Assembly: GCA_004524445.1 (NCBI GenBank)
Contig: SDNP01000040.1
Location: forward strand, 1 to 21,895
DNA: 21,895 nucleotides
DNA from: Candidatus Thorarchaeota archaeon
Lineage (GTDB): Archaea > Asgardarchaeota > Thorarchaeia > Thorarchaeales > Thorarchaeaceae
Direction: 5' to 3'
This document shows, piece by piece, positions 5,472 through 9,372 of this stretch. The number at the start of each line of letters is the position of its first letter. Position 1 is the first letter of the stretch. The translations under genes were made by a program, and so were the position numbers. The notes below the pieces were generated by a model. It was not told the origin of the DNA and did not search any database. It was given only the letters and a program-made list of their open reading frames with translations.

Positions 5472-5867
5472 TTAGACGTCATATATTGAAACAGAGGTTT
5501 CTAAATTCTTTGCTGCTTGTATGCATTCTCGGAGAATTCCGGACTTGTCAGCATCCATGGGTGCAAACGCAATAACAAACCAAATTCCTTTCCCGGTGGC
5601 CATAATGATACTTGTGGCACCAGATGGATTGATGGCAACTAGGCTTTTGTCGCTGTTGAGGACTGTGATAAACGGGATATTCTTTACCATGAATTGGCTT
5701 ACTTCTCCATTCCATGCTCGTACTAAAGTATAAAAATCATCTTTCTTTAGGTGAAGATTCTCGGTCATATATCCGGGGTTATTTTCGACACTAAATACAC
5801 ATGCGCCAGTTATTTCGGAGTAGTTGGACATCGCAATTTGTATGGTTCGCTTAATTCTTGCACTCAA
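5472..5867 (-). CDS. Profilin-like protein (Asgard type, divergent)
   Basis: 131 aa with TTG start. The pattern helix-YSEITGACVF-GYMTENL-LVRAW-(beta strands)-LVAINPSG-FVIAFAP-C-terminal helix recalls Thor/Loki profilins (ITGxxV, YxTxNW, AW, LVATNxxG). Recognised from memory, not aligned. Confidence 0.65.
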   Translation of the reverse strand: MSARIKRTIQIAMSNYSEITGACVFSVENNPGYMTENLHLKKDDFYTLVRAWNGEVSQFMVKNIPFITVLNSDKSLVAINPSGATSIIMATGKGIWFVIAFAPMDADKSGILRECIQAAKNLETSVSIYDV

Positions 5868-5967
5868 TGTGGTAGCCCTGTTGAGTTAAGAGCTCTGCAA
5901 GAAATAGGTATTGCGTGCATGTAGCACAAACCATTAGAAATCTGAAATGAAGGAGAGAACAATTGTA

Positions 5968-6561
5968 TCAGGAGGCAATAGCGACTGCTTTTGCCATGAG
6001 AATACTTCTGCTATGCAATTCGTTGTTGCTGATCCAAGTTACAAGCTTGCCATCTTCAACAGACATGCCATGACGTAGTGCAATATTTCTCAAATCTGGA
6101 TGATTCAAGTATGGTGATTCTAATCTATAAACAAACCACTCGTCTGAACCCTGTTCCTTAATCCTGCATCTTATGTTGATCTCGTTGCCTTCACCCATGT
6201 CAACTCTGAATCGCTTTCCAAGAGAATGTGAAATCTTCGCTTTTGGTCCGAAAACTCCATTCAGAACCGCATTTGTATAGTTTGCTGCAGGAGTAGGTAA
6301 AAATGCCCATGTCCAGAAGGCATATCCAAATACCATGAGAGCAAAAGTCACAATGAAACCAACTGTGTTGAATGAGTAGACCACCTCGAAGCCCTGTGAC
6401 CAGCCGGGTGGGAACCATTCCTGTGGCAGAGATTCAATCTCATAGATATCAGGGCTATAGAATATGTAAAGGGCCGCAGAGAATACTACGAGTAGAGTTG
6501 CAAATGCAATCTTTTGTCTTTCTCGGTAAAGACTCTTGGCATTCTCGAGTAACCGGTCCAT
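5968..6561 (-). CDS. Membrane protein with 2 TM helices and a C-terminal soluble domain, unknown function
   Basis: GGAGG lies 8 nt before the ATG, which directly abuts the upstream TAG. TMs are IAFATLLVVFSAALYIFY and VGFIVTFALMVFGYAFWTWAFL. Confidence 0.78.
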   Translation of the reverse strand: MDRLLENAKSLYRERQKIAFATLLVVFSAALYIFYSPDIYEIESLPQEWFPPGWSQGFEVVYSFNTVGFIVTFALMVFGYAFWTWAFLPTPAANYTNAVLNGVFGPKAKISHSLGKRFRVDMGEGNEINIRCRIKEQGSDEWFVYRLESPYLNHPDLRNIALRHGMSVEDGKLVTWISNNELHSRSILMAKAVAIAS

Positions 6562-6915
6562 CTAATGTTCCTCCAGGGTCTTTTCATATACCTTGCGTGT
6601 TTCCTTTCCGTAGGTTCTGCACAATGCGACGAGGACAGAGAGCAGCGGATGTTCGTTGTTGATTCGTATTGCATAGAGCTTTGGCGTTAGCTCATCGATG
6701 AGTATCAACTCGTTTTCCTGCAAATGCGATAGGACTCCTCTATAGAGGCTCCTTGATTTGCCACTGTAACCGATTAGTCGGCTGAGCTGTACTCCGCTGA
6801 CACTACGTGGGTAAATATGAGCTAATGCCAATAGAATTGCACGCCGAGTGCTATTAAGCGATGCGAACAACTGGATGAGCTCATATACTGAATGCAGTGT
6901 TTCGTCGTCTTCCAT
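6562..6915 (-). CDS. Winged-helix (ArsR-like) DNA-binding protein
   Basis: LFASLNSTRRAILLAL...VSGVQLSRLIGY...LY..VLSHLQENELI followed by a beta wing. ATG 6915 (MEDDE) is preferred over 6960. Confidence 0.72.
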   Translation of the reverse strand: MEDDETLHSVYELIQLFASLNSTRRAILLALAHIYPRSVSGVQLSRLIGYSGKSRSLYRGVLSHLQENELILIDELTPKLYAIRINNEHPLLSVLVALCRTYGKETRKVYEKTLEEH

Positions 6916-7099
6916 ATTTCTCAACACACTATAGACCTTTATGTGCGCCAGAATACACATTGCGAATTCATAATGCTAGCAAGAATTTTATCGGTTTGTT
7001 CTTTGCTCTCCCAGCTTCTCTAATGGAGAATCCAACTATTTCATTCTTGTGTATTATAGCTGCTCGTCCATGCATTGAGTAGTATTGAACCGCATAGAG

Positions 7100-7107: not shown

Positions 7108-7160
7108 CTTCGTTTGTGAGATATGATATATCTCTACTCACATTAACGGAGGTTTCAAAA

Positions 7161-7727
7161 ATCGGATCATTTGGAAGTAAATTCCTTGGATGGCTAGTAG
7201 CTGTCGCGATCGTACTTATCGCGGGATGGTTCCTGCTGCCTTCAGGGTATAACACGTTAGTCTTGTGGCTTGCGCCACAACTCGGAAATTACATTCGTCC
7301 GACTCTTGTTCTTGTCAACGCACTGCTAGTAGACCCACTCAATAACCTGCAGATGGTGGCCATTTGGGGTGCTGCGGGATTCATTGCTGGAGTGCTTGCT
7401 GGAACGAAGAAAGGGGCGTTTGCTGTGGGCCTGCTGGCCTGGCTCACGATGGTATTAATGCTTGTATTTCTGGTCTTTCAGCTATTTACAACTGGTGTAG
7501 AACTTGGTACAATTCCCCCCATTCCGCCAGGTTCATCAATAGCGGATGTTTTAGGGATTCCACTTGTTCAATCAGTAATAGATGAGCTGTTGCCACTTAT
7601 TGCCGGCAGTGGTGGAAGTCCAGATATTGGCTCGCTTCTGCAGCCATTGATAATTTGGTTCTTGACACCCCTAATTGTTGTAATTGTCACAGGAATCATT
7701 GGCGCTGTAGTGCGCCCAAAGGAGTGA
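7161..7727 (+). CDS. Multi-pass membrane protein, unknown function; probable ATC start (ORF track gives GTG 7116)
   Basis: There are 4-5 hydrophobic segments and a Pro-rich loop (TIPPIPPGSS). GGAGG at 7148-7152 sits 8 nt before an in-frame ATC. Confidence 0.75.
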   Translation: MGSFGSKFLGWLVAVAIVLIAGWFLLPSGYNTLVLWLAPQLGNYIRPTLVLVNALLVDPLNNLQMVAIWGAAGFIAGVLAGTKKGAFAVGLLAWLTMVLMLVFLVFQLFTTGVELGTIPPIPPGSSIADVLGIPLVQSVIDELLPLIAGSGGSPDIGSLLQPLIIWFLTPLIVVIVTGIIGAVVRPKE

Positions 7728-7731
7728 GAGA

Positions 7732-9372
7732 ATGATGAAAGTTAAGCATGCATTTACAATTTTATTCGTAGCGTTCATGGTATCTGCGCCATTGACTGCA
7801 GCAGCAATGCAGGACAGCTTTACTGTTGCGCAAGAGGAGGAATTCAATCCTGAAGAACTCATCGGAAGACTCCTTGAAGAAGGAGCTGAGGTGCTACTTA
7901 CCAACATTGACGATGATGGAGTACCAGGTGTGATTTATGGACAACTCGGTATTCCTTCGGATGATCTAGGACTCGAGGAAGATTTCTATGACGGTTGCCT
8001 CGCTATGGCAATGATATCGACTCATGGAGAATTTTTGGATATTGTCTTTGATCTAATAGGCGGAAATCCATTTTCCGGAGATTCTTCCGGGGGTGAATTT
8101 ACCACAGCACAAGATGGTGGCATAGGTGGTCCTGAAGAAATTTTGGATATCTTGGGAACCGAATTTAATTTGCTGATAACAGTCTATGCCAACATGCCAG
8201 AAGCAGAGTCTCAGCAGAAAATGTCAAATGTTGTCACACACATGACGAATACTTTCGGTTTCAGTTTGGCACAATTACTCACACTCAGAATCGATGAGAA
8301 TTTGTTTCCACCAGAAGCCGAAATTGAACTGCCTTTTGACTCGCTAGACCTGTTCATCTATCAGGAGTTGAGCACATTTGATATTGTGTCAAACGCGATG
8401 TTGAGTCAAATGGATGACTCTGGAATCCTTGGAGCGATGGATACATCCTTCTTTACTGAAGCAAGAGCATCAGCTGCAGGAATGCTTGCTATCCCTGATT
8501 TAGCTGAGCTGGTCAATTTCATCAACTCAACCTTTGAAGGTGCTGGAACAGTTCCTCCATCCTCTGGCTTTGCTCTAGCTCAATTCCCAGGGAATCTAGA
8601 AGGCCCACTTGCAATAGCCGCAGTAGGCTATCTTGGTGAACAAGTCCTGACATCAGAAAGCACGGAGTTGAACGTAGGCTCATTGGTTGGAGCAACAGGA
8701 ACAATTTCTCCATTAGATTCCGGACAGTCGCTTATTCTTACCAACCTGCCTGAGAATGTAAATATCACATCTGTCACTCCGTTCGTTGAGAATCAAACCT
8801 TTTACGAAGCGAATGGTAGCACCGTCTTATGGAATTCGACTGCACTTGGAGACCAACCGGAGTATCTAGTTTCATTTGATGGTGGAGAATTTCCGCCGCC
8901 AATCACCATTGAGCGAACCTTCTCTCCCGAAACTGTCACAGCCGGAGGTTCTGTTGAGGTGACCGTAACGGTAACCAACGAAGGAACTGAAGCGATATCC
9001 AATGTGCATCTAAATGACACAGGCATATTGAGCTACTACAGCTCCATTACGGTGACAGGTACAACAAGTGATACATTTGCAACACTTGCTGGTGGCGAAA
9101 GCGAATCAATCACCTATCAAGTCACATTCGAAAACGAGGGTAGGTACGGATTCCCCAAGGCTACTGTGATGTATACATATGAAGGGGACAGCTATACAAA
9201 GACTACACCTCGCGATGGCTATACTGTAGAGCCAAATCCTGGCAATCTTGCAGCCCAGGCCATAGCTGATGGATGGCCCTATTCTGGCATAGCCATAGGC
9301 GTAGTAGCTCTCGTTGGAATCTACTCGATTGCGGGACTTGCTCGCGGCCGGGGCGACACGTATCAAGTATAA
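7732..9372 (+). CDS. Secreted, C-terminally membrane-anchored acidic surface glycoprotein with a DUF11/BatD/CARDB-like Ig domain
   Basis: N-terminal signal peptide and a very acidic body with several N-x-S/T sequons. The segment ITIERTFSP..V..G..VEVTVTVTNEG.....NV.L.D....L..GES..ITY is Ig-like, and a C-terminal TM is followed by RGRG. Confidence 0.8.
   Translation: MMKVKHAFTILFVAFMVSAPLTAAAMQDSFTVAQEEEFNPEELIGRLLEEGAEVLLTNIDDDGVPGVIYGQLGIPSDDLGLEEDFYDGCLAMAMISTHGEFLDIVFDLIGGNPFSGDSSGGEFTTAQDGGIGGPEEILDILGTEFNLLITVYANMPEAESQQKMSNVVTHMTNTFGFSLAQLLTLRIDENLFPPEAEIELPFDSLDLFIYQELSTFDIVSNAMLSQMDDSGILGAMDTSFFTEARASAAGMLAIPDLAELVNFINSTFEGAGTVPPSSGFALAQFPGNLEGPLAIAAVGYLGEQVLTSESTELNVGSLVGATGTISPLDSGQSLILTNLPENVNITSVTPFVENQTFYEANGSTVLWNSTALGDQPEYLVSFDGGEFPPPITIERTFSPETVTAGGSVEVTVTVTNEGTEAISNVHLNDTGILSYYSSITVTGTTSDTFATLAGGESESITYQVTFENEGRYGFPKATVMYTYEGDSYTKTTPRDGYTVEPNPGNLAAQAIADGWPYSGIAIGVVALVGIYSIAGLARGRGDTYQV

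Follow-up and report, generated by a model that had tools for sequence, protein, structure and literature searches.

A divergent profilin-fold paralogue of Thorarchaeota: lineage specificity and a shift in functional constraint

Gene C of a Candidatus Thorarchaeota archaeon (assembly GCA_004524445.1) encodes a real, divergent and lineage-specific profilin-fold paralogue in which functional constraint has shifted in comparison with the canonical profilins of the same lineage. Profilin is a flagship eukaryotic signature protein of Asgard archaea. The gene was studied within a stretch of 21,895 nt of contig SDNP01000040.1 (hereafter, the window), and the features discussed below are collected in Table 1.

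Table 1. Gene C, its upstream element and the neighbouring genes in the window
Feature	Coordinates	Strand	Length	Remarks
Gene C (CDS)	5472..5867	minus	131 aa	divergent profilin-fold protein; TTG start; stop codon at 5472-5474
Promoter-like element of C	5901..5926	minus		TATA-like stretch and CTACA-type box; conserved upstream
TATA-like stretch	5901-5908	minus		CTATTTCT; 33 nt ahead of the start codon of C
CTACA-type box	5909-5926	minus		precedes the TATA-like stretch
Gene B	5968..6561	minus	197 aa	N-terminal helix, two long TM helices, C-terminal domain of ~100 aa
Gene A	6562..6915	minus	117 aa	winged-helix-like (family alignment); abuts gene B
Genes divergent from A-B-C	7116-9372	plus	about 160-200 aa; 546 aa	polytopic membrane protein; second protein of 546 aa

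Gene C and its family

The sequence strings by which a profilin-like protein had been recognized from the DNA alone (ITGACVF, YMTENL, RAW, LVAINPSG and PFITVL..S) were all located in the open reading frame of gene C, together with the string TS, which follows G83-A84. A sequence search retrieved 69 homologues sharing 52-100% identity, nearly all of which are 128-131 aa long, labelled hypothetical and derived from Thorarchaeota-type MAGs. In an alignment of 37 members of the family, 28 columns are invariant and the final 40 residues are almost unvarying; gene C is judged to be far more than a chance ORF. Residues R4, R7, T8 and I11, situated upstream of an internal ATG, are each conserved in at least 90% of sequences, and the 12 residues before this ATG make up most of the predicted N-terminal helix. 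Since the N-terminal residues are conserved and a promoter-like element is placed 33 nt upstream, the long form starting with TTG can be taken as real, and the recorded 119-aa form (P0002 and P0005) is a truncated gene call. The protein gave zero matches in the Pfam and NCBIfam libraries, and the Pfam Profilin model PF00235 (gathering threshold of 25 bits) did not match it even at E<=10.

The upstream regions of C at 15 loci have in common the sequence ACTACAnTCAGGAAAnCTATTT(C/T)T, located 30-35 nt before the start codon, and the flanks of this element do not align. From its position and composition we infer a BRE/TATA promoter. A search with the upstream box in five genomes recovered essentially only the element of C itself, and essentially no further genes that could form a regulon.

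Fold and homology

The AF2 model of C (pLDDT 92.5, pTM 0.87) has the topology H-E-E-H-E-E-E-E-E-H, and thereby bears out the profilin-like strand/helix pattern (H-E-E-H-E5-H) that had been proposed from the sequence. When the model was used in a Foldseek search, the top 15 matches were all profilins, with OdinProfilin first (E=4e-9), followed by LokiProfilin-1 and -2 and then by eukaryotic profilins. A second, independent aligner (VIA) superimposed the model on the Odin profilin with a Z of 18.6 and an rmsd of 1.7 Å over 119/119 residues, and on Loki profilin-1 with a Z of 17.5. The Odin and Loki profilins (5ZZA, 5YEE and 5ZZB, crystallised with rabbit actin) are the best structural matches of C (TM 0.80-0.87, rmsd 1.6-2.1 Å), with a sequence identity of 13-18%. 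Actin binding has been demonstrated for these proteins.

Profile comparisons point to the same family. Among PDB sequences, the C-family profile matched a single solved structure, the profilin 7PBH (E=5e-7, positions 18-122), and hhalign aligned the C family with 32 canonical thorProfilins at 93.6% probability (E=2e-7, 129 columns). ThorProfilin (7PBH) and C are of similar length, have the same fold (Z 12.8) and both carry the AAK.L end of the C-terminal helix and an N-x-x-G turn, although they are only about 22% identical. The former has a disordered N-terminal extension that is missing from C, while C has an extra C-terminal tail; moreover, thorProfilin passes PF00235, which C does not, and the conserved part of the surface differs. 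C is a genuine profilin-fold protein homologous to the Asgard profilins, and the check by AlphaFold, Foldseek and structural alignment returned profilin, not roadblock, longin, GAF or an unrelated fold.

Paralogues, distribution and phylogeny

The genome that carries gene C also contains two canonical-type profilin genes, arranged in tandem on contig C41 (L001:1038-1947, minus strand). The first product, P0071, passes PF00235 with 27.9 bits and is identical to the 7PBH chain over 105 aligned residues. ThorProfilin TFG12995.1, whose NMR structure is 7PBH, originates from a Thorarchaeota MAG (bioRxiv 10.1101/2021.08.06.455371), and the identity of P0071 with this chain over the aligned residues indicates that the genome of the window is the source MAG. 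The second product, P0072 (123 aa), is 98.2% profilin-like by hhalign and fails Pfam; its motifs are WQTSNW, DYS and GEKGH. The sequence-only reading had presented C as a second profilin paralogue. A search of the genome for a canonical profilin confirmed that other profilins exist, so C is not the sole one, but with two canonical copies in tandem it is the third.

In a survey of 400 Asgard species genomes, the strong matches to C (E<1e-50) were confined to the GTDB family of the window itself (f1), in which 61 of 85 genomes carry the gene, mostly in one copy. Weaker matches of the C profile outside this family turned out to be ordinary profilins, for which the canonical profile gives a much better fit. 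The better-scoring proteins of two other families (f15 and f16) were considered as the closest kin of C, which would place its origin outside Thor, and were rejected, since the canonical profile fits them far better. An exhaustive HMM search with the C family against 1.84 billion cluster representatives yielded 14 matches. Two are full-length C-family clusters (one matched over residues 1-101 only), four are fragments, three are artefacts of repeat proteins, and the other five are profilin-like but distant.

Maximum-likelihood analysis recovers the C family as one clade (support 99/98), the attachment point of which is not settled by the tree, and the stem of this clade, with 2.49 substitutions per site, is the longest internal branch. 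C originated as a paralogue specific to the Thorarchaeota family of the window, alongside the two canonical tandem profilins; its divergence spans a very long branch, and it is now under strong purifying selection. In one genome (G348, contamination estimate 7%), two complete A-B-C clusters were found (G348:C166:10639-12313 and G348:C28:4742-6147), which may represent a strain mixture or a true duplication.

The presence of multiple profilin-like genes in an Asgard genome is known, e.g. three in 'Ca. L. ossiferum' (PMC9834061), and the lineage-specific expansion of the profilin, Roadblock and longin folds in Asgard archaea has been documented (PMC9834061, PMC10933270). Extra profilin sibling clusters have come from structure-based surveys (bioRxiv 10.64898/2026.10.28.762692). 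A published description of the Thor family of C was not found in the literature covered, which was incomplete (Ponlachantra et al. 2023 lay outside it).

Residue changes and redistribution of constraint

Canonical and C residues were compared column by column on the hhalign alignment. In the C family, canonical W34 is replaced by Y, W39 (the NW tryptophan) by M (89%) or L (11%), K65 (the lysine of KY) by variable residues (S/P/E), Y66 by an invariant Phe, R70 by L/M, R79 by an invariant I, K91 by an invariant T and K96 by an invariant W; Y9 and Y13 of thorProfilin are likewise replaced in C. The GxG(H) turn of the solved Asgard profilins has become G-A-(V/I/T), and the Odin/Loki motifs NW, G(V/I)KY and GxGH read NM/NL, xxxF and GA(V/T)S. 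When tested for the canonical Asgard profilin motifs (NW Trp, β4 Lys-Tyr/Phe and GxG(H) turn), the C family therefore fails, and two of the features that it has lost, the tryptophan of NW and the lysine of KY, are common to all solved Asgard profilins. The profilin motifs given in the sequence-only reading agree with the Odin and Loki sequences, and its observation that the KYS.LQ and GH hallmark positions are altered in C held: the NW Trp has turned into M/L, the KY Lys is variable and constraint has moved elsewhere.

The extent of this movement was expressed as column entropy normalised to the mean of each family. Three regions are less constrained in the C family than in the canonical one: the NW loop (1.16 vs 0.36), the β3-β4 strands (1.61 vs 1.01) and loop 72-74 (2.39 vs 1.12). 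The reverse applies to the β6-β7 hairpin (0.20 in the C family vs 1.67 in the canonical one) and the pre-helix loop (0.84 vs 1.78). The C-terminal helix is conserved in both families alike, and the C family carries an additional conserved C-terminal tail (SVS..D). This entropy shift means that the canonical actin-binding region has been partly freed from constraint and that a new patch has been fixed in C, and it is a more robust sign of remodelling than single residue losses.

The losses of individual residues can be related to human profilin, in which we take R74, R88 and K69 of PFN1 to be the counterparts of Thor R70, R79 and K65 (with K69 as an anchor). R74E and R88E of PFN1 are standard actin-binding-deficient mutants (PMC4118959, PMC9249392), while K69 is a PIP2 residue whose counterparts have been given as Loki K60 and Odin K58 (PMC8410842). 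The loss of R70 and R79 was rejected as proof of lost actin binding, because the Odin and Loki profilins have D/E and T at the same positions and yet form co-crystals with actin. The three-strand motif that makes contact with actin (β3-β5) includes the β3-β4 strands (PMC10933270).

A putative retargeted binding module

The best explanation of these data, to which we give about even chances, is that C may be a retargeted binding module for one conserved partner and not a canonical G-actin/PIP2/polyproline profilin. The protein has kept the profilin scaffold and lost the NW tryptophan and the KY-strand lysine, and constraint has relaxed on the β3-β4 part of the three-strand motif with which canonical profilins contact actin. 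Its new, near-invariant putative surface is composed of (i) the β5-β6 turn INPxG, (ii) the β6-β7 hairpin TGKGVWF, (iii) the loop ahead of the C-terminal helix and the opening turns of that helix (MDxDKxGILRECIQAAK), and (iv) the added C-terminal tail SVS..D. This surface would bind a single, highly conserved partner, the canonical functions having been dropped. A conserved promoter of its own, with a very short leader, appears to drive the transcription of C. That canonical function is gone, and that a new partner exists, is what we infer.

A precedent for a profilin fold that has departed from actin is provided by the poxvirus homologues (monkeypox A42R, 4QWO, and ectromelia ECTV-PH). They match C with a Z of 14.5, retain few of the residues that contact actin, polyproline and PIP2, and bind tropomyosin and the ATI protein (PMC1964790). 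Unlike C, they are viral, derived from animal profilins and have known partners, and there is no evolutionary link between them and C.

A possible specialised actin-binding isoform

Thor actin is itself 92-94% conserved within the lineage. In canonical profilins, as established from profilin:actin structures, the pre-helix loop and the start of the C-terminal helix face actin. The near-invariant pre-helix loop and helix start of C would thus lie on the side that faces actin in the canonical pose, which speaks against retargeting: given this position and the conservation of Thor actin, the strong conservation of C could equally mean an altered actin interface. C might accordingly be a third, specialised isoform, and would then bind the single Thor actin, as monomer or filament, via a re-optimised interface; its affinity, nucleotide-state preference or regulation might not be the same as in the two canonical copies. 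We regard this as possible, though with a chance clearly short of even. It is consistent with the profilin fold and homology of C and with the fact that several profilin-like genes per genome are normal in Asgard archaea (PMC9834061). Moreover, all Asgard profilins biochemically tested to date act on actin (PMC9433394, PMC12993045), the Odin and Loki proteins among them without the Thor/human arginines. The most conserved stretch of C includes the loop and helix start in question, and the conservation of Thor actin would fit a near-invariant interface. Arguing in the other direction are the loss of the NW Trp and KY Lys, universal in solved Asgard profilins, the exposed β3-β4 positions, which are conserved canonically and among the most variable in the C family, the very long stem branch and the lack of any score with the Pfam Profilin model.

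The sequence-only reading had named a different actin/Arp paralogue as a conceivable partner. No candidate for this role emerged, as the genome (90% complete) contains one actin-family gene only, even at E<=1.

Neighbouring genes and possible coupling

Gene A is single-copy and is spread over many Asgard families, whether or not they have C, but is present in none of the 135 genomes of family f22. Its mean column identity reaches 89% across genera in which other proteins are 45-60% identical, which is unusually strong for a small DNA-binding protein. It gave nothing significant against Pfam and PDB sequences, and language-model features offer, as a lead only, a MarR-like assignment. Gene B is confined to the Thor order and always abuts gene A. 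Its C-terminal domain is conserved and adopts a β4-α-β2-α arrangement (AF2 pLDDT 82), and an invariant W.WAFLP.PA motif marks the junction. A profile search of Pfam and PDB sequences with B returned nothing significant; Foldseek with its model gave no match at E<=0.001, and only a weak, non-significant likeness to type III secretion chaperones.

The order and orientation A-B-C, with B directly upstream of C, were kept in 14/14 loci with enough flanking sequence, and the order was found by coordinates in about 50 genomes. In the fetched loci the spacer between B and C is about 100-350 nt long, and by HMM match coordinates it goes down to ~57 nt in some genomes. In a sole genome (G337:C10:14235-17621) about 2 kb separate B from C, which suggests an insertion between the two genes.

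Could C act together with these neighbours? It is quite unlikely, in our estimate, that C is a cytoplasmic adaptor or regulatory subunit of A and B in a membrane-linked transcription-control module, a reading that is a subset of the retargeted case. Apart from the constancy of the A-B-C arrangement, it draws on the conservation of A, which is as strong as that of the new surface of C, and on gene fusions in other archaea. Proteins that join a profilin fold to a TrmB winged helix occur in Lokiarchaeia (P0084, TrmB E=3e-10, and an Atlas cluster of 412 aa, 100% TrmB), and a wHTH-Roadblock fusion is present in Bathyarchaeota, so there is precedent for linking this superfold to a winged-helix regulator. 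Against coupling, A and B occur without C in two genera (g8 and g10) and in the sister family f2, where the locus is intact and other genes follow B; A is found in many Asgard families without C; and C has a conserved promoter-like element of its own and a spacer. In addition, collinearity across the order extends to the whole region (membrane protein, TRAP-beta-like, arginase, TrmB and GGR genes), so that the adjacency of A, B and C may reflect simple inheritance and lends little support to coupling.

On the opposite side of A, in the divergent orientation, the 546-aa protein carries a TRAP-beta/CARDB-like Ig domain near its C-terminus and is followed by an arginase-family gene; the arrangement of the membrane protein, the 546-aa protein and the arginase is kept across the family. 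Salt-lake metatranscriptomes (four runs from two studies) contain contigs 95-99% alike to window positions 5843-7062, which implies that a close relative of this Thorarchaeota lives in the sampled lakes. These contigs cover A, B and the B-C spacer and, of C, the first ~25 nt only (5843-5867); none of the records in the four runs validly bridges an A/B/C gene boundary.

The Lokiarchaeial fusions are about 410-445 aa long and consist of an N-terminal profilin domain, a TrmB wHTH (PF01978, E=3e-10) and a C-terminal domain. Their profilin-fold domain matches C with a TM of 0.82 (by query), and the linkage of a profilin to a winged helix resembles the position of C beside gene A. The fusions differ from C in that they have canonical-like motifs (DNW, IEY and GSV), are joined to TrmB and not to an A-like protein, and belong to another Asgard class. 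Besides P0084, such loci were found at G258:C58:6610-6864, G239:C54:265042-265293 and in about 8 further f22 genomes, and the Atlas cluster of this type has 51 members; it may be speculated that the fusion is an actin-state-sensing transcription factor. A different architecture was observed in the sister family of the Thor order (L031, G311:C34:7000-9500, plus strand), where a long ORF ends with a canonical-like profilin domain (motifs WQTPNW, NYRV and GKGH) preceded by a long charged region that is probably disordered or coiled. This ORF, a 447-aa open frame, has 357 aa in the locus and runs off its 5' end.

Other readings of gene C

It is improbable that C, through its Gly-rich TGKG hairpin and nearby invariant K/R residues, recognises the head group of a phospholipid or some other small ligand that bears phosphate, serving as a membrane or metabolite sensor that derives from the PIP2 binding of profilins. 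In canonical Asgard profilins, phosphoinositide regulation is expected to act via basic residues equivalent to human K69 and K90. What suggests such a role for C is that little or no variation occurs in hairpin T91-G92-K93-G94 (K93 in 97%), K108, K62 and R113, and that phospholipids regulate Asgard profilins (PMC9433394, PMC8410842). These residues nevertheless belong to a family with an overall acidic character (median pI 4.9, net charge -4) and in which K65, the equivalent of the human PIP2 residue K69 (PMC8410842), is not conserved; no match of C to a ligand-binding family was found.

That C is a Roadblock/LC7/MglB-type small-GTPase regulator wrongly assigned to profilin is hardly conceivable: Roadblock structures do appear among its fold matches (Z 10-12.7, with GAF domains at about Z 9 by VIA) and have an α/β core and terminal helices in common with profilins (PMC10933270), but profilins match C over its full length at far higher values (Z 14-18.6), leaving Roadblock 5-6 units below, the C model has a short α2 and a seven-stranded sheet with the profilin-specific three-strand insert that separates profilin from Roadblock, whereas Roadblock proteins have a five-stranded sheet without this insert and dimerise via a long central helix, and in sequence the profile of C matches profilin, not Roadblock, with no Robl_LC7 Pfam match.

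Significance

The C family is conserved, single-copy, lineage-specific, annotated as hypothetical and invisible to Pfam, and it constitutes a clean test case for the diversification of the profilin scaffold. The element of surprise is limited, as the expansion of profilin paralogues in Asgard archaea has already been documented. C is small and soluble, and a canonical sibling from the same genome has an NMR structure, which makes side-by-side biochemistry practical. C could be either a specialised actin regulator or the first archaeal profilin with a changed partner. Should this profilin-fold protein have left the actin system and become an adaptor for a non-cytoskeletal partner, such as A and B, which we consider unlikely, the profilin scaffold would already have been put to use in signalling or transcription control among the Asgard archaea, in parallel with the profilin-TrmB fusions of Lokiarchaeia.
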